DNA of 64,000 nt from Lama guanicoe (lineage: Eukaryota). Location of the stretch: positions 3,300,524 to 3,364,523 of the forward strand of contig MU053873.1 of assembly GCA_013239625.1 (NCBI GenBank). The letters run 5' to 3'. A program made the position numbers and the translations under genes. Of this stretch, positions 24,515 through 50,752 are shown piece by piece; within the stretch, counting starts at the first letter, position 1, and each line of letters opens with the position of its first letter. The notes below the pieces were generated by a model. It saw nothing but the letters and a program-made list of their open reading frames with translations. It was not told the DNA's origin and ran no database searches.

Positions 24515-25697
24515 AGCCTTACTGAGGTGTGACTGACAAACAGAAACCACTCACCTTTAACACGCACGTGATAAGCATCATTACTAAAGACAATGGACAT
24601 CTATCACCCGGGAAGTACCCTTTTACAATCCTTTCTCCCCTCCTCCTGTCCCCACCCAAGCCCTAGGTAACCGCTGACCTGTTCACTGTCACGGCAGATT
24701 CGTTTGTGTTTTCTAGAGTTTCACGTACATGGGATCATAGGGTTGCACTCTTTCATTTGAGATTTTTCACTCAGCAGAATTATTTTGGGAACCATTCTGT
24801 TCTTGGATATATCAGTAGCACATTTTTATGACTGAGTCGGGTACTATCTTTATGAATATCCCACAACAAATTCATCTATTCACCTGTTAATAGACATTCG
24901 GGTAGTTTCCAAGTTTTGGCTATTACAAATAAAACTGCTAACAAACTTTCATGTGAAAATTTTTGCATGGATGTACACTTCCATTCTCTTGCGTAAATAT
25001 CTAGGAGCAGGCTAGTGTGTCATATGGGAGGTGAATGTTTAACTTTTTAAGAGACGGTTTTCCAAAATGATATATTATTTTACATGCCCACTAGCCACTG
25101 CATGAGAGTTCGTTACCCCAAATTCTCACCAGCAGTTGGCAGGACCCATCTTTTCATGCATTCTAGCAATTGTGCAGTGGTATTTCACTGTGATTTTACT
25201 TTGAACTTCTTTAATGACTAATTATATGCTGACATATTTTCACGTGCTCATCTGCCTTCTGTGTGTTCTCCTTGGTGAAGTCTATGTTGCAATCTTTTGC
25301 CCATCTTTTTTGTCAGGTTGTTTCATTTACGAGTTTTGAGAATCATTTATATATCCTGGATTCAAAAACTTCATCAGGTATGTGATTTGCAAGTATCTTC
25401 TCCCAGTTAATAGTGACATTCAAAGAGCAGATGTTCTTAATCTCAATAATGGGCAATTCATCAATTTCTTCTCTTACGGACACTGTTTTGGTGTCCTATC
25501 TATGAAGTCTTCACCCAATCCAAAGTTATAGAAATTTTTCTCCTGTTTTCTTCTAGAAGCTTTATGATTTTTAGTTTCACATTTATGTCTAGATCCACTT
25601 TTTTGTTAATTTTGTATATGGTGTGAGTTCATGGATTGAAATTCTTTTTTTTTCCTCCTTTGGATACCTAATTATTCTAGCACTGTTTGTTTCCTAG
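24515..25697 (-). mobile_element. Old L1 3' region, degraded ORF2 end and 3' UTR (partly repeated at 27507-27814)
   Basis: T-rich tract with ttttggctattacaaataaaactgct, tgtgcagtggtatttcactgtg and tgatttgcaagtatcttctcccag. Confidence 0.85.
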
Positions 25698-26612
25698 ACA
25701 TGGATATTTGGGAAGAGGTTTTGGAGCAGAAATGATCCACCCTCCTCCATCTAGTGAGCTACTCATCCTTCAAAAGCCAGGTCAAATGTCCCATTGGCTA
25801 GGAAGCCTTCCCCAGCCGAGGCCAGGTAGCTCTTTCAACTGTCCTCTGGTGCCATCTCTGGCATATTCTTATCTCACATGATTGCATTAATTCCCAAGTC
25901 TTTTCCTGATAGAGTGAAAATTCAGATGTGGTCCTTAATTCCAGCACTTAGCACAGACCTGGCACAGGTGGTGATGGTAGGAGTGGAGGTGGGGGAGTGA
26001 CTTAGAAAACAATTGTTAAAATACAAAAAAAAAAAGAATAAACAAGTGAACAATCCTCTTTTTCTCTTTTTTAAACAACTGAGTGGCACCTCTCCAGGCC
26101 CTACTCACAGGCCGTATCTTCCAGGAAGCCACCTGGCTGCACCTACTTACATTAATCATCAATAATACTTACTAAAAGTATCTCACTGATTTGACTTAAT
26201 CCAAGCCCAGCATCTAAGTACTTTCTGCACATCATTTCGTTTCATTCTCACAAATCCCTGGGGCAGATACAACTACTATGATTATTTTACCGAAGAGGAT
26301 ACACATGCTCAGAGACGTTGGGTTCCATGCCTGATGTCACATATCCAGTGTCAGAGCTCTGGTTTGAACCCAGAGAGCCTGTCACAGAGGCCTCGCTCTC
26401 ATCTCTACACATACCACCTCCTGGTTCCCTCTATTTGTACAACTCTCATGTCCCTGACAAGCCCAGGTCCCCGATATTACCAGTCTTTGCCAACGATGCA
26501 CCCTGGAGACAAAAGAGCTAAGTCACACAGAAGACCCCTTCCTCACCCTCTGATCCTCGCCATGGGGACACAGACACCCATGGGGACACACCCAGAAGGA
26601 CCTCCTCCTTAC

Positions 26613-26676
26613 CTTAGGCCACACACCCATGCCGAAGGAGCTGCTGTCTGCCATCTGGTGCAGGTACAGATCTGTC
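26613..26676 (-). CDS. MYO18B: Second identical copy of MYO18B coding exon 10, inside the gap-flanking duplication
   Basis: Identical to 28730-28793 at offset 2117. Only one copy can be used without a frameshift. Confidence 0.5.
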
Positions 26677-27256
26677 CTGGAAGCAGAGAAGGGACGAGAA
26701 GTTATTAGGGAGGGCCCACATACACCAGTGGCTGTCACACAATGCTTCAAGCAGCCCCAGTGGCTACCCCAGGCCCTGGCCAATATTCCTCACTCATTGC
26801 CCTCACTCATCCTTTCCTAAGTGCCAGGAAACCCTGCAAGTCATGGACTATAGCCACAAAGGCAGGTTCTAACTCCAGGTCCTCTAAGGACCAGCTGTGT
26901 GAACTTGGGACTGTCAACTTGAACAAGCCCCTTCTGTATGCCAAGATCTAAGATTACTCATGACAGCCCTACCCAATAGGTGTAAGTATTAGGCCCATTT
27001 TACAAATGACAAAATAAAGGTACAGGGTTAGCATCTTGCCCACACACTTAGCAAACACAGCGCTGGGAGTCAGGCTGAGTTCTTCTGGCACCCAGAGTCC
27101 AGAATCCCATGCTGTCCTGCCACCTGCCCCTTCTTCTCCTGGCCTCTGTCTTCACGCCATTAAGTGGCATGATGTTTAAGGTCCCTTAAACCAAAAGACC
27201 CTTAAAAGAGGTGCCTGCAGGTAGGTAGCCTTACCCTGGAGGCCTCAAAAAAGCAA

Positions 27257-27506: not shown

Positions 27507-28729
27507 CAAGTATCTTCTCCCAGTTAATAGTGACATTCAAAGAGCAGACGTTCTTAATCTCAATAATGGGCAATTCATCAATTTCTTCTCTTACGGACAC
27601 TGTTTTGGTGTCCTATCTATGAAGTCTTCACCCAATCCAAAGTTATAGAAATTTTTCTCCTGTTTTCTTCTAGAAGCTTTATGATTTTTAGTTTCACATT
27701 TATGTCTAGATCCACTTTTTTGTTAATTTTGTATATGGTGTGAGTTCATGGATTGAAATTCTTTTTTTTTTCTCCTTTGGATACCTAATTATTCTAGCAC
27801 TGTTTGTTTCCTAGACATGTATATTTGGGAAGAGGTTTTGGAGCAGAAATGATCCACCCTCCTCTATCTAGTGAGCTACTCATCCTTCAAAAGCCAGGTC
27901 AAATGTCCCTTTGGCTAGGAAGCCTTCCCCAGCCGAGGCCAGGTAGCTCTTTCAACTGTCCTCTGGTGCCATCTCTGGCATATTCTTATCTCACATGATT
28001 GCATTAATTCCCAAGTCTTTTCCTGATAGAGTGAAAATTCAGATGTGGTCCTTAATTCCAGCACTTAGCACAGACCTGGCACAGGTGGTGATGGTAGGAG
28101 TGGAGGTGGGGGAGTGACTTAGAAAACAATTGTTAAAATACAAAAAAAAAAAGAATAAACAAGTGAACAATCCTCTTTTTCTCTTTTTTAAACAACTGAG
28201 TGGCACCTCTCCAGGCCCTACTCACAGGCCGTATCTTCCAGGAAGCCACCTGGCTGCACCTACTTACATTAATCATCAATAATACTTACTAAAAGTATCT
28301 CACTGATTTGACTTAATCCAAGCCCAGCATCTAAGTACTTTCTGCACATCATTTCGTTTCATTCTCACAAATCCCTGGGGCAGATACAACTACTATGATT
28401 ATTTTACCGAAGAGGATACACATGCTCAGAGACGTTGGGTTCCATGCCTGATGTCACATATCCAGTGTCAGAGCTCTGGTTTGAACCCAGAGAGCCTGTC
28501 ACAGAGGCCTCGCTCTCATCTCTACACATACCACCTCCTGGTTCCCTCTATTTGTACAACTCTCATGTCCCTGACAAGCCCAGGTCCCCGATATTACCAG
28601 TCTTTGCCAACGATGCACCCTGGAGACAAAAGAGCTAAGTCACACAGAAGACCCCTTCCTCACCCTCTGATCCTCGCCATGGGGACACAGACACCCATGG
28701 GGACACACCCAGAAGGACCTCCTCCTTAC

Positions 28730-28793
28730 CTTAGGCCACACACCCATGCCGAAGGAGCTGCTGTCTGCCATCTGGTGCAGGTACAGATCTGTC
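28730..28793 (-). CDS. MYO18B: MYO18B coding exon 10 (RTDLYLHQMADSSSFGMGVWPK)
   Basis: 64 nt, ttccag acceptor, AAG|gtaagg donor. Phase 2/0 fits both neighbours. Confidence 0.93.
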
Positions 28794-31700
28794 CTGGAAG
28801 CAGAGAAGGGACGAGAAGTTATTAGGGAGGGCCCACATACACCAGTGGCTGTCACACAATGCTTCAAGCAGCCCCAGTGGCTACCCCAGGCCCTGGCCAA
28901 TATTCCTCACTCATTGCCCTCACTCATCCTTTCCTAAGTGCCAGGAAACCCTGCAAGTCATGGACTATAGCCACAAAGGCAGGTTCTAACTCCAGGTCCT
29001 CTAAGGACCAGCTGTGTGAACTTGGGACTGTCAACTTGAACAAGCCCCTTCTGTATGCCAAGATCTAAGATTACTCATGACAGCCCTACCCAATAGGTGT
29101 AAGTATTAGGCCCATTTTACAAATGACAAAATAAAGGTACAGGGTTAGCATCTTGCCCACACACTTAGCAAACACAGAGCTGGGAGTCAGGCTGAGTTCT
29201 TCTGGCACCCAGAGTCCAGAATCCCATGCTGTCCTGCCACCTGCCCCTTCTTCTCCTGGCCTCTGTCTTCACGCCATTAAGTGGCATGATGTTTAAGGTC
29301 CCTTAAACCAAAAGACCCTTAAAAGAGGTGCCTGCAGGTAGGTAGCCTTACCCTGGAGGCCTCAAAAAAGCAAGCAAAAGGGGAGGTGGAGGCAAGTCCT
29401 CCTCCAGGCACCCTCTACTCACAAGAGCCCAGCCTATGACCCCCACACCCACCATGGGGCTCACATTGGTTCATAGGAAGTAGTGCTCTCTCACCAGTTT
29501 CCAGTCAGTTTCTCCAGTTCTGGGGCCTTTAGTGCCATCTCCCCAGGTTCTTTGTCTCACAACCTGCAAGGTCCCTTGTCAGAGAGACTGTGAATCCAAT
29601 CCCAACTCTGCCAGCTAGCAGATAAGGTGATTCTCTTCTCTGGATGTCCCTCTAACGCATCTATAAGTGGGCATCCTCCCCCTTGCCTCACGGGATTAAC
29701 GGAGATCTTACATATAAACTCCTACTGCCGGCTTGGCATAGGGTAGGTGTTCTATATTTGTTTTCCTTGCACTTGACCTGGTCTCAACTCCATTAGCTGG
29801 AAATTCAACTTGACAAATAATCAAGGAGCATCTACCCAGTGCCAAGTCTTGTGTTAAGTCCTGGGAAGAAGGAAAGGAATAAGGCAGGGCCCTTGATTCA
29901 AAGATCTCACAGTCTAGTGAGGAAGAAAGACCCAGTATGGCAGGTGCTGAACCAAAGCACATACCAGGCACCAAAATGGTATCAAGGAGAAACAGAGAGC
30001 AGGGATCAGGCAGCACTCCTGTAAAGAAGGGTTTTGGAGCAGGGTTTTGAAGGATGAATAAGAGTTTGCCACATGAATGCATAGGAGAAAGGAAGGACAT
30101 TTGTGGAAGTGGGAATCAGTTTTCTCCTTTGGAAGCTTCACCATGGATTAGACAACAGCCTGGCAGAAGCAGAGGCAGAGAAAGGGAGATGGCCTGGGAG
30201 GTCACCAGGGAGCCCCCAGAGACACCATAACACCCCATGAGGTCTGGGTTGTTCTAAGAACTTTTTTCCACTCTCCCAGGTCCCTGCAACTCATCTGGGG
30301 CAACCCCATGCCATGGTCAGTTTTGTCATAGCTCCTAAGGACATCACAATCACCTGGGTCAGGCCCACTGACACGGAGCCCTCCCCATACAGATCTGATC
30401 CTGGCATGAGGCCTGGCATCCTCTGCTGGTAGCAGTCCAGGAGGAGCTTTCAACTCCCCTCTCTCCACCAGGCGATGGCTCTAGGCCCAGAACAGACTCC
30501 CACCCAGGGGTATAGAACTGATCACCTACACATGGGCTCACAAGGGAGAGGGGCATGGCCTCCAGTCTTCTGAGAGATGAGGAAACGGGTGAATCCCCTC
30601 ACTGGAGGCCCGAAGCTGGAAAGCAGGATTCAAACTTCTACATGCAGAGTCTACACTCTCCCATGTTACCCCTCAACTATGCACCACACACCACGTCTAC
30701 CACCTCGACATGTAACTTGGTTTAAATGCCCACAGGGCTGGCACAAGTAGGTACCCATTCTAAGGAAGGGAAAACTGAGGTTCAGAGATGACCACATCAG
30801 GCAAAGCCTGTATCTAAACAGATATCCCTCTGACTCCAAAACCAATCCTTTCTAGCACACACCAGATCAGGACGTGATGGGCTTGCGGGGCAGGTCTAAA
30901 CCTCCAGAAGAACAACAACAAACGTGCAAAGCATTTGCTATGCTCTGGCCCCATTCTAAGCACTGTACACTCCTCACTCGGTAACCATCACAACACTCTG
31001 AGGTAGACACACTCATTTCACAGATGGGAAATTAGGCTCAGAGAGGTGAAGTCACCAGCCTGGGGTCACACAGTCGGCAAGTGAAGAGGCCAGCTGTGAA
31101 TCCCTGCAGTTTGGCCCCAAAGTCAGTGGTCCTAGCCACAATGCTACACCAGTCTACTCCAAGTTCTTCTATATTCCCAAAGGCTTCTCAGAAGCTTCCT
31201 TACTTTCAGTTACCTTGCTCTGAAAACCAGAAGTTTCCTCTAATCTTCCCTCTATCTGAAGGGTACAGTTGTCCTCCCAGCCTTACCCAGGAGGCTCAGG
31301 ACAGGTTGAGACTGTCCTTCAGATGGGGGAGGAAGGCAGACAAATAATGGGGGGTGCAAAGAGACAAACTGCAAATTATCCCTCCTTCACCTGGGAAAAG
31401 GCCTAGTTTTTTCCTTGCCCTGGGGCTTCACTAGAACCTTGCCCGGTCACTCAAGAGATAAGAAAACCAAGGCTCAGACAGGGAGGGAGCCACACAATGC
31501 CCTAGAGTCAGGGAAGGGCAGAGATGACTCCCTGGGCTACCTCCCCCAGGAAGCACTCCAAAATGAATCTCCTGGCTACTCTGCGGGCTGTTTCACCCTG
31601 AGCTCCATTGCCAAGGTAACCCACTCAAGCAAACCCTCCTGAGCACCCAAGGCTCTCACAGAGTTCAGGAACTTCTGGAAGATGTGGGGTCTTCTGTTCC

Positions 31701-41900: not shown

Positions 41901-42430
41901 CTGAGAGCAAAGATCACATAAATTAGAGCAAGATGACACTGCCCCCACGAACCAAGGGAACTGAATTCCTTATGTAGGAGTTTCTCAGTGGGGCTGGGAG
42001 CACCTAAATCAGAAGGTTCTGGTGGGGGTGGGGAGTGCTTATTTAAATGCAGGAGCCATGGTCCTACCCCCAGCTTTCTGACTGGGAAGCTCCAAAGTGG
42101 GGTCCAGGAATCTCCATTTTGGGCAATCAGCTATGTACGCAGCACAGAGAACTGTCACGTGACACTGTAAGCTCAGCCACAAGGGGACATCTCACACGGC
42201 TGGGACGTTCTCTCACCCTATGGAGACTCTCACCCCGGGACAGGTGCTGTGGGGGTCTCAAGACGTCTGCTTGTCAAGAGGGAAGTGTCTGCTCCCACCT
42301 CTGGGCTGGCCACCCTCTCCAACTCCCTGTCCACCTCCTGTTCCCAGCCTGTCCAGCACCAATGCAGGTCTTTCCCACTCCTCCTTCTCTGGCCTGCCCC
42401 TTCCCACTCCCGGTGCTGTGGCCCCCTCAC

Positions 42431-43657
42431 CTGGTCCGAGACTCTGCTCTGGCCGCCTCCACTCCCCTCCTGCAGGGCTGGCCCCTCTCGGCTCTTCATC
42501 TCGGGCCTTTCTGCACAGCTCTCCAGAGCAGGCTTTCTAGGTCCTTCCATCTCCAGCTCTGGGCCCCCATCACCGGTGCTAGTGCAGGGCTCCTCTGCTT
42601 CCTGCCCTCTGCTTTCAGGCTGGTCCTCCTTCCCGGCTGCTGCCGGCGTCTCCCCACGTGCATCCATCTCCTTTGGGGCTTGAGAGCCCTTCTCTGTCTT
42701 CCTTCCAGCTTTCCCTGCCTCCTCAGACCTGCTCTGAGGCTGCCCTACCTTTTCCATCTCACCCTGGGGTTGACCTGCTCTCTCCATTGCTCCGGGAGCT
42801 TCTCCCACCTGTCCTTGTGCTGTGCCCACCTTCTCTGCCTTGGCCTGAAGCTCCTCGGTCTTGTTTGCCTGACTTAGGAGCACACCTTCTTTGTCCTTCT
42901 TACTCTGGGGACCGTCCCACCTGCTTCTTCTGCCCAGGGAAACTCCCCATCTTCTCACCTGGGTTCTGGCCCCAGCCCACTTCCTTTCACCGGCTGCCTC
43001 CTGGGAGAGATTCCCCTTTGCCACCTTGCTTGAGGGGTCCCCTCCCCGTTTCTCCACTGTCCCTGGTTGCCCCCCCTCCCCTGGCCCCTCTTTGCCCTGG
43101 AGTTCACCCCCTTTCACCCCTTTGGTCTGTGGGGCCCCGCCCCCCTTCCTCACTGTGCCTTGATCCTTCTCGCCTTCTGTCGGTAACACAGTTCCCAGGT
43201 CCCCAAGACCCCCAGCCTGGGTCCTCTCAGCCTTCGGAGCTGCATCCTTGGTGCTGGCCTGGGGGCCACAAGGAGTCTCTGAGGTCTCCCCTTTCTTTTC
43301 AACCCCAGGGTCTGTGGCTGGGGGTGGGGTCTTGCAAGTGGGTGCCCCACGGGGCTGGGTCCTCTGCTCCGGCCTGGCTGAGTCCGAGTCCAGCTTGGCC
43401 ACCATCAGCAACACATCGCCCCTCCTCACCCCCCTCTTGAAGGGCAGGGGTTTTCTGGCTGGTGTCCCGCTGGGGCCCGACTCCTGGGGCCTCTCGCCAT
43501 TGATGCTGGTCATCAGCATGGGGTCCACGGTGCCGGCCCCCTCGCTCTTCCTGCCCAGAATGTCTGCGCTCTGGGAAGAGCTTGAGATTTGTTGGCTTCC
43601 AGATTTGGTGCTGCTGTCGGACTTGCTGTTGGTCTGGTTGAAGGGAATTTCTGGGGT
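42431..43657 (-). CDS. MYO18B: MYO18B coding exon 3, large N-terminal extension exon (TPEIPFNQ...PFKRGVRRGDVLLMVAKLD...SRVSDQ)
   Basis: 1227 nt open frame overlapping ORF 42230..43528. ttttctcctag acceptor, CAG|gtgagg donor. Contains the conserved KRGVRRGDVLLMVAKLD block. Confidence 0.94.
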
Positions 43658-46600
43658 CTAGGAGAAAACACCACAACCATACTTAGCTGCTTGCTACCAC
43701 TCACTCATTCACTCACTCACTCACTTGTTCACCCAACCATTTACTCATCCAAAGACTCTCAAGAACCTACAGGCAATGAGCTGAACCCTAATATCCTAGG
43801 CTTTGGCTCCAAACCTCAAGGCCAAGTGATGTAATGAAAGGAGTGGACTCTGGAGCCCAACAGACCCAAATTCAACTCCTAACTCTGCCACTCACTAGCT
43901 GTGTCGCCCTAGGTAAGTTACATCCCCTCTCTAAGCCAGTTTCCCTTAGGACCATAATGGCCTACTACACAGCGTGGGTGTGGGGATTCCTAATACATGG
44001 AGAATGAGCCCGGCACCTAGTAAGTCCTCAGTCACAGGAGCCACTATTGCTGCGCCTGTCACTGGTGCTGCTGTCACGAGTGCTGTTACTATTATTTACA
44101 CCTGATCCTGCTAGGCAGCGATGGGGAAAGGACCTGGACCTGTTCTTGCCTTGGCTTCGATGCTTTCCAGCTGGGTGACCACAGACGACATCACCTCTCC
44201 TCTCTGAACCTTGGTTTTCCCTCAGTGCAGGCAGATACCATCTCACCACCCAGGTTTTTTGTAGGATGAGATGTGGAAACTGCAGAGAACTGAATGAAAT
44301 GAGCTGCTGCTGCCTCCACTGTCCTGGTCCCTGTACCACACCTGCAGACCAGGTGAGGGCCCTGGTTCTGCCCCTGAGGTCCTCCACTTTTGCTTGACCT
44401 AGACATCTGGGAACACAACACCCTGGGGTCTCCACTGCCTGTTCCTCTCCCATGTTTGTCTTTCTATTGTCTTGTGAGGTCAGCCCTGCCCAGCCCTCCA
44501 TCCTTAAGCCAGCCTGGCTGCAGCCTGAACTGCTCACAGGGTCAGCTTTGCCTCTGCAGAAAAGGACTGAGGGGGAGCTTCCACCCTGATGCCTGGTTTC
44601 ACCATCTGCGCTAGTCTGGGTTCTACAATCTTGGATCAGAACACCAGCCTCCCACACACCTGTGCCTGGGAATCTGGGGTTCTCACCCTCCTCCAGTACT
44701 CCAACCAGCCCCAGGACTGCATTGATTCTACCCTGCAAAGTTTCACATCTGAATTTCCTTTCCCAAACCCAGGTCTGCTAGCTCTCACCTGGGCCACTGC
44801 CACAGCCACTGAGTTGATGTCCCTTCAATTTGCTGCCAGTCATTCAAAACCTGATCAAAAGATGCTGGCAAGTGCCCAGGAAAATCATTTCAGCCTCCAG
44901 GAAAACCATTCAACACTGCCATCTGCCAGTCAACGTTCTCAAAGAGGAGCCCCCTCCTCTGGAATTATTGTTCCTGCTTATCTCCAAGTCTCTGTCCCAC
45001 CAGGCATTTCCTGCCACACCTGACACTCCCCTATTTCCATACTCTGTTCAAGCTGAGCTTGCTGCCTGGAATGCCCTTTCTCCTCTCCACTTGTCCAGGT
45101 TCTATGCATCTTTCTACACCCAGCTCAAATACCACATCCTCCATGAACCTTTGCCTGAAAACCTCAATCAGAAACTGTCTCATAGGCCCATGAAGTCCCA
45201 GAGCACCGTGTGCTGGGGCACCATTTACTGCAAGTATCATGTTTTGCATCACATTCTAGCTCTGATTTGTGTCTCTCTCCTGTTTTAAGTGGTGGATGGC
45301 CCCAGAGCACAGTCTCAATCTTCATCTTTGTAAAAATGACAACAAGAGTTATTGATCAGTCCTTACAGTGGGTCCTACATCACCATCGTGGGATATCCTA
45401 CTTAATCCAATAAAGAACCCAAAGAAGTAGGTTCTAAACTTCGCCCCATCCTACAGATAAGGGAAGAAATGCAAACATGTTAGGTGGCCCGAGACAAACC
45501 TATAATGGAAAATCACACGGGCCTCCGAGTTTAAAGCCAGTGCCATTACGCACCTCATAGCAATAGCCTTACTTGCCTTTCTGGGACTCACTGGAATCTC
45601 CTGGGCGCTTTAAAAAATTCTGACATTTTGGCTTCCATCCCAGAGAGTCTACACAGTTGGTCTGGGCAGCGCCCCTACCCCCAGGTGACTGCAACATGCA
45701 ACTAGGGCTGAGAACCCCTGGTAGAATCTCCATGGCCTGGGCACTCAGCCTGACCCTCTGGGACCCGACAGGATATCTCCTTGGAAAGGGGATTGGCTGC
45801 ACCTGGCACATCTCACCAACGTTTCCACCATTTTGCAAAGTGAGTCAGTGCCTTATTTTTAACCAAACCACAGCAGTGGAGACAGTAACATGGGGATGGG
45901 TCAAACAAGATAACGCCTGCCAACTTCCCTCCCCTCCACCCAGGGAATTCTCTCCCTTCGGATTTTCTCCATCTCCAAAGCCCTTAGTCCCCTCTGAGGC
46001 CTTCTTAATACAAGGGGAAGCAGCATGTCTAGACTTACCAGAGCTCAAAGGAAATACACAGCACATCCATTTTACAAATGAGCACACTGAAGCAAGAGTG
46101 GGGAAGGGATCTGGCCTGGACCATATGGAGTGGTGGGGCCAGAGCTAGAACCCAGTTCTCCTGACATTCAAGGACCTCTTCCTGCCCCTGTGTTAGTCCA
46201 GCCTCTCCTTGTCCCTCATGGCTGGGTGGCCTTAAGAAAACCAAGTTGCCTTCCTGTGCCTCATTTTCCATCCCTGCAAAATGGTGATGGATTCCAGTGG
46301 CTCCCTGAAAGGATTATGTGAGGATCAAATCAGACAGCTGTGCTGGGGTGAGGAGAGAGAATCCAATTATTTAGTGATCAGGACAAGAAAATACAATCAG
46401 CAGGAGCCAGTCAGGGCTTGCTGCCTCACAGGAACATGTCCTGAGGTTGCCCTGTTCCAGCCCCAGGAACATCTTGGCCTGTGGTCCAGACACCTGTTGC
46501 GGTCTGAGGCCTGTCCATCCTGCTCTGAGTCTCCATCCAGGCCCTATGGTGACAGTCTGTCCCATTCTCTGCTCAGCTCTACTTCTTAAGTTGTGCACAG

Positions 46601-48196
46601 AGACACCAGCATGGCCTGCACGCTCCTGAATTCTTTCCTCTCCAGGCTTCTGGGGCCACTGCATGAGCCACCTCACTCCCCAGACTGGTCCTTCCCCAGG
46701 CAGCTGGCCAGAGTAGGGAATACACAGACCTGACTTCACTGAACCTCAGTCTCCACTTCTGATAAGTGGGTATAATCCCATTTACCCACTGATGCACAGG
46801 GTATCAAAGGAGCCCATGAGCAGAGAATCTTGTGCAGTGATAAACAGTACACAACAAACTTCCTCATGACCTAACAGCAGCCTGTGGGAGTCGACTCTGG
46901 CCCCTACTCACTGGGTCAGGCAGGAGTGGGCACAGAGCCTGTCCTCTCCGTCCTCCCCACCCCACCACAGACTTGGTAGGTGTGTTCTGTTAGAGAACTC
47001 CTCTGATGCAGCAAAGTAACTGTGATTGGACAGGTGCAGACACGTGGTGGCCGGCTGGGTCAACAGCTGAAGGGGCATGGGAGGCAGAGCCAGAGTGGCC
47101 ACTGGGCTCGAGCCAACTCTAGGCCCTTAGGCCACCAGATCATGCAGCTCAAACACTGCAGCATTCACCTCACCTCCAGAGGGCGCTGCAGAGATACAAG
47201 GAGAGGCCCTTTCTGCTAAAATGGGGATATGCCCAAGGTGCACTGCATTCCAAGCCCCCTTCCCTGGTGTCCAGCCCCATCGCCCTGCCAGGGTTCCTTG
47301 TCTAAAGAGCCAGGGAAAAGGAGGGAGGCAGCACTAGACACCATCAGGGATAAATTAGCAAGTCTCTAAAGCACAGGGACCGCATCTCGTCTACCTACTG
47401 CTTCCAGCCAGCAGCGCTATTCTCAAGTACAGGGTTTTGGTGGACACCAACCAATCAGAAGGGCTGACAGCTGGAGCAGGGTCCTGGGGTCTCTACCTGT
47501 GCCAAGCAGTAACACTTTAATTATTGGCTTGTGGCCACCCTGAGGGACTCAGGGAAGGACTGAGGTGAGCATGACAGCTGAATGGCACTTGGGGGACTTG
47601 GGGCCACGGCCATTTACCACCTGGTATGGAAGGGTTTCAGTATTTTACCAACAATACAGCGACAACCAGTGAATCCCAACTAAACATCTTTTCTGCTTAA
47701 ACGAAAGCACGCTCTCATCCTTAGGTAATATTCAGGTTTCCCTTTCTGCACAAGTAGTGGTAAAATGATCCCTATCACACATCAACTGGTATCATTCATT
47801 CATTCATTCAACAACAATTTTTCAGCACTTGCTATGGACCAAGCACTATGAGAGCTGCTCAAGATACAGCAGAATGAGAGAGTTGTTGCTCTTAAGGAAT
47901 CCCTAGTCAGATAAGCCATATCATCAAGTAATTACTATGCTGACCACAATTCAACAGGCATAGGAAGTGCGGTGGGAATCAGAGGAAGGAAGGCAATGGG
48001 AGAGCTTTCCAGAAACATACTATTTGCACTGAATTTTGAAGGATGTATAGGAGTTCAACAGATTAAAGCGAAGACAGGACACTCCTCAAAGTGAGGACCG
48101 CAGGAACAAAGGTTGGCAAGTGACTCAGGGGAGGCTCAGGGGACAGGATGGTGGGTACTGACGGTCACCTGGTCCCCACCCTGTGGGGCCACTTAC

Positions 48197-48355
48197 CTCT
48201 CGTTCCGGAGAGGCAAGCGCTGTCTCTTTTCTCTGTCTTGCTTCCTTGGACTCTTTCTCAGTCTCCCGGACCAGCTGTCTAATGAAGCCTCCTGGGATGA
48301 CAGAGAACAGGGGAGGGGGCGAGGACGGTGGGGGGCTCTTGTCCTCGTCCCGAAT
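48197..48355 (-). CDS. MYO18B: MYO18B coding exon 2 (IRDEDKSPPPSSPPPLFSVIPGGFIRQLVRETEKESKEARQRKETALASPERE)
   Basis: 159 nt, aacag acceptor, GAG|gtaagt donor, phase 0/0. Translation matches MYO18B. Confidence 0.96.
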
Positions 48356-49965
48356 CTGTTTTGTGGAAGCAAGGAAGGAGAAAGCTCAGTGAATGACCCT
48401 GCATGAGCAAGTGGCCCTTTAAAGAGTCTGTGATGGAGCTGGGGAGGGAGGCACACATGACCAAGCCTGTGTATGAAAGGCCACAGCAAAGCAGGTGAGG
48501 TTCGACATGGAAGTGGAATGCCTGAGCTTCAGAAGTGACTGTGGTCAGTGTGCTCTATGCCTGGACCGAGTTTCCTCATGATGTGCATTTACACCATCAA
48601 GGCCACTGGTTCCCTCCCTTGGTGTGAGACAGAACTGCTTCAAAAAGAGCTTTTCCAGTTTCTGGAACGGGATGGATCCCAGAGAACCATTCACACTCTC
48701 CTGTTCCATCTCCCTTGCAGTTAGTAGAATAGATTAAGCCATTAATTCATCGCTCTATCACTTCTGTGTGCCAGGAACATGGAAAGGGAGGGAAGGGCTT
48801 GCAGCCACGGTTTATGTAAGAATCCAGCCCTGTGGCTACAGCCCACTCTGCCCACCCAGTGCTGTGGCTTCCTAACCCTCCCCAAACCAGGACCTGGGAA
48901 GCCAGGGGCTCCTCAACGCTGGGCTTTAAAGTCTGCACTTTACCCTAGAAACATGGTTCAGGCCAGAGCTGACTGCATTTGGGCTGTAGCTGAGGACTGC
49001 CCCGGTGATCTTGGGGGCTGAAACCTGGGGTTGTAACCAATGGGGTGGGCCTTTAACCAACATCAGTGACTGCTCGTGAGTTTCTATAGCTAGGTCTAAA
49101 ATAAGCTCCTTATCAAGGTCCTCTCCAGAGGCTAGCTAACACTTGATCTCTGCAGCCCTGCTGATAAAAGGGGAATCCAAAGGAGACAGCAAAGTCCAGA
49201 AGGCAAAGCAGAGGGCAAGAAATAAGGCAGACCTCCGCCTGGGAAGAGTGAAGCAGGAGACACACGAGGCTGGGCTCACGTTTACACCACACTGCCCCTC
49301 TTGATGGGACTGAGACCGCGTCATAAGTGAAAGGTGCTGCAGGTGTCAAAATTATTCTGGATGCTGCATCCAGATCAGTCCGGGAGGGGCAGAGGCAGCC
49401 AGAAAGAAGCTTCTGGACCACCCCACCCTTCACCCTCCAATGCATCAAAACATGTGCACATGGGTGGGAGGAGGGGTGGAGGAGATAACACGCATCAAAG
49501 AGGCAGCCCTTCAAGGAGTCTTATGAGAAATACAAAAGGGAAAAGAGGAATCACTGGGAAGAAGGGCTTGTTTCCAATTCTCCATGGTGACAGAAGGCAG
49601 GGACCTCAGAAACCCATCCCCAGGGCATAAACCTGGCCAACAGCTCTGCAACCCCTCCCCAGCATACGCCCCTCCTCACCACCCCACAACCCCATACTCA
49701 TTCCCTCACTGCCTACTGAGAACAGGCAGCGACCAGGCAGCCATGAGGGAGTCAAGGACATGGTCACTAATGTCCAGCTGGGCTGGGAGGCCATGCCTAA
49801 CCGAGGCAGATGGAGGGGGACTGGACATGCCCCAGAGAGGCACTGGGACTTCAGAACCCCTGCCCGAGGTGGGAGGGGGCAGCCTGGACTAGCCCGGCTG
49901 AAACTTATCCTTGGAGTGTCCAGCTGGCCCCAGTGGCTGCAGTCTGAGCCCTCAGCGTTACTTTC

Positions 49966-50004
49966 CTTCTGCTCCCACAGGGCGAGGCGTGATGAGATGG
50001 CCAT
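49966..50004 (-). CDS. MYO18B: MYO18B coding exon 1 (MAISSRLALWEQK). The exon including 5' UTR spans 49966-50115.
   Basis: ATG at 50004 gives the known MYO18B N-terminus. A pyrimidine tract and CAG acceptor sit at 50116-50150. The phase-0 end is followed by GAAAGT, a non-canonical donor. Confidence 0.93.
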
Positions 50005-50074
50005 GCTGCGGCCGTGGCAGGACCACGAGGTGAGATGAGATGGAGCTCTCGGCCAGACAGCACGGAATGCGGCT

Positions 50075-50095
50075 TTATGGACACACACAGCGCAT
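50075..50095 (-). other. Short uORF (MRCVCP*) in the MYO18B 5' UTR
   Basis: ATG CGC TGT GTG TGT CCA TAA lies inside the exon, out of frame with the main ATG and ending 70 nt before it. Confidence 0.6.
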
Positions 50096-50752
50096 GAGGT
50101 GATGGACACACGAGACTGAACCACAGAGACACAGTGGGGAGAGAAGAGAGATAGGTGAGCTCATGGGCACCGCCCGGCTCCCATTCCCCACCATCATCAT
50201 GTACCAAGAACCCACAGCCAGGCACAACTCACTGTCACTTACATCTGGGAGGAACGCAGTCAGCACAGGGCTGCTGGCCATGGAGCAGACAGTGCACTGA
50301 AAGCCTTTGCCCTCAACCCTACACTTCAACTTTCTCATGACATATACAATCAGAAGAGCACATACTCATTAAATGCACAGCTCAGTGCACTCACATAAAG
50401 AACTTAAATGTAACCAGTACCCTGACCAAATTAAAACTATTGTTTTAAATTTTTTAAATAAACACTATGATTTTAAAAATATTTTAAATCCAGTTAAAAT
50501 TTAGTGTATTACTGATTAAAAGAATCATCTTAATTTTAATCAAAATTATAAAAATAAAAAATAACTTTAAAATTATTAAAAATAAATTTTAATTTAATTT
50601 AAAATATTGTATTTATATAAAACAAAATCAAATCCAATCAGGCAAATCTAATTTACAGTGATAGAGGCTGGAAGAGCTGTTAGCTTTTGCTTGGGAAGAA
50701 CCATGGGGGAACTTTCTAGGGCAATGGGAATGTCCTATATCTTGATGTAAGT

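Follow-up and report, generated by a model that had tools for sequence, protein, structure and literature searches.

The window analysed here, a 64-kb stretch of guanaco (Lama guanicoe) DNA, carries the muscle myosin gene MYO18B on its minus strand. When the 5′-most three coding exons of this gene are joined through an intron that begins with GA in place of GT, they form 1,425 nt free of stops, and 63 of the 66 initial residues so encoded are identical in MYO18B of Camelus bactrianus, with 96% identity over the large third coding exon. The uninterrupted frame and these two agreements identify the locus as camelid MYO18B. Specifically, the first coding exon occupies 49966..50115, with a predicted start at 50115 behind TTCAG (the sole AG within the 70 nt examined, from which this 5′ limit is drawn), and its ATG at 50004 opens 39 coding nt, or 13 codons, that run to 49966 (MAISSRLALWEQK) and are followed by GAAAGTAAC. 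The same exon also holds a six-codon upstream open frame (50095-50075, minus strand) in a different frame from the main ATG. The intron that follows spans 1,610 nt (48356..49965) and ends in a pyrimidine tract and canonical AG acceptor (48356..48385), after which come the second coding exon (48197..48355, 159 nt, phase 0, encoding IRDEDK...), with a canonical GT donor at 48196, and the third coding exon (42431..43657), a large N-terminal extension whose frame is free of stops when the GA donor is used; the exon-4 donor lies at 42430. Elsewhere in the window, a 1,867-nt stretch occurs twice at 99.7% identity (25390-27256 and 27507-29373), flanking a 250-base N gap, so that a single motor exon of MYO18B appears both at 28795-28730 and at 26678-26613, and this is likely an unmerged assembly overlap.

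With respect to the first intron, the 5′ splice site reads AAG/GAAAGTAA (49958..49968), with the GA itself at 49965-49964. The earlier note on this DNA had described an exon ending at 49966, an intron opening with GA, and a phase-0 exon resuming at 48355, all of which our reading confirms, and the acceptor (...ACAG) carries a normal AG. It described the donor as regular consensus apart from position +2; between -2 and +7, +2 is the one position at which the site fails to match ordinary U1. No sliding of the junction produces a canonical pair, given that shifts of one and two bases yield GG..CA and AG..AC; by inspection the exon end and the intron end share AG only, and the repeat length given for the human intron in the published table described below is 2. 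The intron combines a GA in an otherwise U2-consensus donor, an AG acceptor with a pyrimidine tract, and the lack of any repeat-equivalent canonical alignment, three features expected of a U2-type GA-AG intron. Minor-class introns carry donors of the RTATCCTT type, and the MYO18B donor, GAAAGTAA, does not match this motif; the human ortholog is classed as U2. The motif AG/GARAGT has four matches on the gene strand of the 64-kb window and by itself proves nothing, so that it is the position which is informative. What goes beyond chance, as judged from the sequences compared, is the placement of the motif exactly at the K13/I14 boundary, as demanded by 158 of 209 homologous proteins, together with the same six bases after the same codon of the paralog MYO18A. 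Editing of A to I was considered as a means of rescue and set aside, as it would produce GG rather than GT.

The human ortholog of this intron is already on record. Parada et al. 2014 (PMC4176328, supplementary file 3) catalogue human MYO18B chr22:26157098-26159197 (hg19) as GAAG and U2-like, with support from 846 reads in 6 tissues, 6 cDNAs and 4 GENCODE v17 transcripts. That this is the same intron follows from the variant rs133885, which is reported as p.E44G (PMC3591001) and is positioned at 22:26159289 (PMC8633773): from these, codon 14 opens (c.40) at 26159198, directly adjoining the intron end at 26159197. The human and guanaco introns accordingly agree in gene, in position before codon 14, in terminal dinucleotides and in U2-like character, and differ in length (2,099 vs 1,610 nt). 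In the published catalogue MYO18B is a table entry only, with no mention in the main text and no place among the RT-PCR-validated cases; the high-confidence sheet, in which 14 of 184 rows are GA-AG, asks only for at least 1:20 coverage relative to the top variant (PMC4176328). A literature search found no paper on the MYO18B GA-AG donor beyond this table row, and the main text of Sheth 2006 mentions neither GA-AG introns nor MYO18B. The core finding is therefore known in human and is not new; the additions that we did not find in print are the GA donor shared with MYO18A-gamma and the apparent switching between GA and GG described below.

Protein records provide a second view of the junction. 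We gathered 277 proteins from several searches (two of them covering the best 120 of 280 and the best 120 of 285 matches), of which 209 contain the first-exon peptide; the remaining 68 were left out of the count. The exon joins directly in 158 of the 209, and in the other 51, all automated models, it runs on into the intron. Models of the latter kind are forced and arise solely at non-canonical donors, so that the sample is biased, lineages with GT are invisible in it, and the 158 direct records are uninformative about the base at +2. Within the 51 intron-reading models, the first extra codon encodes E (GAR) in 29, spread over 25 species, and G (GGN) in the other 22, which cover 16 species; V (GT) and A (GC) never occur. 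The second extra residue is S in all models save one (50/51), and this S would not derive from the acceptor side, because an extension of the acceptor would finish in an xAG codon. Species implying GAR comprise placentals, opossum, gecko, rifleman, mousebird and owl, and those implying GGN comprise game birds, waterfowl, ratites and tinamou, finch, another opossum and snake. The models with G-S after the exon (P0095, P0098, P0119-P0125 (part), P0176, P0207-P0214, P0225, P0227, P0228, P0259 and P0265) suggest that the donor is GG in numerous birds, in one opossum and in a snake, where relatives would have GA. Direct and G-S models coexist within quail and within goose, from which it follows that the direct form in these birds would use a GG donor.

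Further records come from vole. Three representative contigs of 8,091-8,138 nt and a fourth of 8,072 nt, all unannotated Logan assemblies, join the two exons directly, and since they hold open frames of 7.7-7.8 kb they represent spliced transcripts; the nearest named vole model, unlike these contigs, is pushed into the intron with E-S. Farther afield, a bichir RefSeq protein shows the direct join with all 13 residues identical, and ab initio models of bichir, sturgeon and tailed frog miss the exon; neither reveals the base at +2. In five fur seal and whale models (P0072, P0079, P0185, P0192 and P0193), both intron ends have been moved by 9 nt, giving ESN in place of IRE. Of the words sampled from 42400-50150, 14 DNA runs contain a share of 0.93-0.95 and 6 RNA runs a share of 0.18-0.36; we count these shares as evidence neither for the base nor for its splicing. 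Splicing at the guanaco junction is proposed from other species, and the GA itself is backed by other species and by the paralog. Because no other junction yields the invariant N-terminus, full-length MYO18B is likely produced mainly through the GA junction.

We turn now to that paralog. A search of the guanaco genome with the second coding exon of MYO18B returned only that exon and one chance match, and MYO18A was instead reached by way of a motor exon on contig C6970, with 70 kb upstream examined in this one assembly. Sequence comparison there reveals, on the plus strand, a gamma-type (muscle) first coding exon, a predicted GA intron and the acceptor exon (G000:C6970:4620567-4622999; L041:7567-7613 and L041:9940-9999). 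The ATG at 4620567 opens 39 nt, and the donor AAG/GAAAGT follows codon 13 (AAG/GAAAGTTG). The predicted intron, of 2,334 nt, then leads to a canonical acceptor at 4622940 and to the residues VKEEDK, in a 60-nt exon with a phase-0 GT that is followed in turn by a proline-rich exon with a phase-0 AG. Ten of the 13 first-exon codons are identical between MYO18A and MYO18B, as are 13 of the 19 initial residues. At the level of bases, the exons agree at 30/39 positions and the introns at 6/6 from +1 to +6, falling to 6/24 from +7 to +30. With all six leading intron bases identical and so little agreement beyond them, a base-call error becomes very improbable and an origin that precedes the duplication is favored, and the divergence at +7 to +30 also argues against recent gene conversion. 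The 13/19 identity, the polyproline exon and a location 10.6 kb upstream of the shared exon all agree with Myo18A-gamma, whose initial 19 residues have been noted to resemble Myo18B (PMC11112018). A search of the Atlas with the MYO18A proline-rich exon gave only matches under 0.8.

The shared GA donor was probably inherited from the common ancestor of MYO18A and MYO18B, to judge by the two guanaco sequences, in which case it would be older than 400 million years; an age in the hundreds of millions of years is likely for it. MYO18B has been described as vertebrate-only and as a probable duplicate of MYO18A (PMC7900500). Our literature search found nothing on a GA donor in MYO18A, which is absent from all 40 GA-AG rows of the human list (PMC4176328), although the Myo18A-gamma paper (Horsthemke 2019) or its supplement may already mention it.

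In terms of recognition, pairing with U1 offers a simple account of how such a donor might be used. Taking the U1 5′ end sequence from the guanaco genome, the MYO18B GA donor makes Watson-Crick pairs at 8 of 11 positions and is unpaired at -3, +2 and +8 alone. For ten canonical MYO18B donors, whose positions were chosen by eye from alignment ends, the number of pairs is 6 to 8, so that the GA donor equals the best of them, and its predicted duplex energy (-7.5 kcal/mol) lies within their range (-5.1 to -13.1 kcal/mol). The corresponding values for the MYO18A GA donor are 7 pairs and -5.9 kcal/mol. Among U1 loci (42 scored from about 33,863 candidates, 30 read), position 7 is A in 30/30 of those read, and none of these 30 has the altered base needed to pair with A at +2. 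With no such variant among the 30 and 8/11 pairs formed, ordinary U1 with a single mismatch would be the simplest account. One diverged U1 copy (L026; G000:C5172:361765-361928, minus strand) has a C to T change at position 8 and is probably a pseudogene; this very change has been discussed for GA-rich copepod genomes (PMC7072748). Helper-dependent GA donors of the FGFR kind also rely on intronic elements farther downstream. Runs of G downstream of the GA donor are not raised (5, compared with 2-7 in other introns, one row of which, exon 4, was mispositioned). During splicing, U5 contacts the exon end and U6 contacts positions +5/+6. We propose that ordinary U1 would bind the MYO18B donor despite the one mismatch at +2, and that the flanking U1 pairs, together with U5 at the exon end and U6 at +5/+6, would fix the register, such that cleavage could occur before GA with no helper GT.

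The earlier note had left room for a base-call error or a splice-disrupting allele, and we regard either as having a negligible chance of being correct for the guanaco assembly, since the same GA is present in human, is implied in 25 other species including whales, and recurs at the homologous paralog site on another contig; the direct joins in vole point the same way. Its preferred reading, a real GA-AG intron, is supported by the published human ortholog, by those vole joins and by the matching MYO18A donor. A second possibility is that the exon is truly joined through some other canonical donor, be it the in-frame GC at +10 (49955..49956, adding E-S-N), which we add to the sites listed previously and where a number of automated models from other mammalian species stop the exon with three added residues, the +7 site of birds (G-S), or an exon inside the intron. 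Public models do carry such insertions (51/209), and the bird G-S form could be a genuine second isoform. The inserted residues nevertheless differ by species (ES, ESN, ESD, ESG, ESA, ESC and longer), as is expected of software sliding to the nearest GT or GC; the curated human protein NP_115997.5 and the vole transcript contigs lack any insertion, the seal and whale models displace both ends by 9 nt, quail and goose show both forms, and the GC at +10 (49956) is very weak, with just 2/11 U1 positions paired. An exon inside the intron finds its best case in camels, where an open frame at 49233..49445 that ends at a weak GT (49232) serves as an alternative first coding exon in RefSeq/GenBank models: of 15 listed models in a cluster of 24, 8 start from the internal exon, 2 show the direct join and 5 miss the region. 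This internal exon (49445-49233) may be either a software detour around the GA donor or a genuine alternative start. Overall, we consider it very improbable that a canonical donor of this kind is the true junction.

A further proposal concerned the GT at +5/+6 (49960..49961), which the earlier note suggested might compete with the GA donor and limit full-length MYO18B. As that note stated, splicing at this GT (49961) would give 43 coding nt and a frameshift. A stop then falls at codon 40, and transcripts diverted there could be lost to nonsense-mediated decay: the stop would lie 82 nt ahead of the exon junction, which would trigger decay and conceal the product. The GT is present and out of frame in MYO18B and MYO18A alike, and one bat model (P0107, ET...Q) resembles what use of such a donor with an upstream acceptor might yield. 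Against this, G+5 and T+6 are normal donor consensus positions, needed by the GA register itself and found in 3 of the 10 canonical MYO18B donors scored, and in its own register the +5 GT forms six scattered U1 pairs, and duplex prediction reverts to the GA register (fixed-register energies of +4.2 kcal/mol for the +5 GT vs -7.5 kcal/mol for the GA donor). We found no measurement of its use. Being a consensus element and a poor donor, the +5 GT leaves the competition idea without support, and such a throttle on MYO18B appears improbable. The reading that we favor, and hold to be very probably correct, is that codon 13 of MYO18B is followed by a GA-AG intron whose donor is likely handled by the U2 machinery as in human and was probably inherited from the common ancestor of MYO18A and MYO18B.

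Among known systems, the FGFR genes cited in the earlier note are a loose parallel. FGFR1/2/3 share with the MYO18 genes a GA donor of a U2-type intron that is conserved across paralogs, and to this extent the comparison stands. It fails with respect to the nearby GT: the FGFR GA donor is an alternative donor that needs a canonical GT 6 nt upstream (Twigg 1998 and Brackenridge 2003, as cited in PMC4176328 and PMC7072748), whereas no helper GT is present at that distance in either MYO18 gene (the nearest is 13 nt away in MYO18B, and MYO18A has none within 17 nt, only GC) and the MYO18 GA junction appears to give the main protein. ITPR1 resembles MYO18B in that alignment software moves its real GA-AG intron onto a false canonical pair, much as in the seal and whale models (PMC4176328; TOGA2 preprint 10.64898/2026.06.30.735536), but it also has an alternative GT-AG junction with a similar read count, and none is known for MYO18B. 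Intron 12 of SYMRK in Trema orientalis is likewise a case of a functional GA donor in a required gene (PMC10668435). In this plant gene the change from GC is young and population-limited, whereas the MYO18 site looks ancient. The GA-AG introns of Eurytemora affinis and Oikopleura dioica share with MYO18 an AG before and an A after the GA (PMC7072748); those genomes show a genome-wide relaxation, possibly with a U1 variant, in contrast to MYO18B, where a single site stands among canonical donors.

As to why a base other than T should persist at +2, both genes are essential: mouse deletion of either is embryonic lethal with disordered cardiac sarcomeres, and null alleles of human MYO18B lead to a myopathy syndrome (PMC11112018). 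That two essential muscle genes have long kept a base other than T at +2 could reflect selection for a weak, regulated donor, an idea to which we give somewhat less than an even chance, with the alternative that +2 is merely tolerated. A fuller version of this idea is more tentative still. On that view, a donor other than GT has stood after codon 13 of the sarcomeric N-terminus in both vertebrate class-18 myosin genes since before the duplication, switching between GA and GG while avoiding GT, and would act as a selected gate through which the sarcomeric forms are spliced efficiently in striated muscle alone. Doubtful to much the same degree is an opposing account, in which each GA donor had its own separate origin, or in which changes at +2 are neutral and the base shifts freely between A, G and T, leaving a real intron with no special function. 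Relatives appear to differ (Monodelphis G vs Gracilinanus E, finch G vs rifleman E, snake G vs gecko E), and this apparent switching between A and G indicates that +2 can change. In addition, the GA donor of Trema SYMRK is fully functional with no effect seen (PMC10668435), and lineages that had drifted to GT could not show in protein records. The six leading intron bases common to both paralogs speak for a single, inherited donor.

Changes at the MYO18B donor will be misjudged by variant callers and splice predictors built on the assumption of a GT, and gene models often err at the MYO18B N-terminus, where 51 of 209 records are extended and others lack the exon. MYO18B and MYO18A-gamma constitute a natural pair for asking how GA donors work without an adjacent GT, and they bear on whether non-canonical donors are selected or only tolerated. 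If the selected-gate proposal is true, few known U2 donors that are both obligatory and non-canonical would be older than those of the class-18 myosins, which would work without a helper GT.
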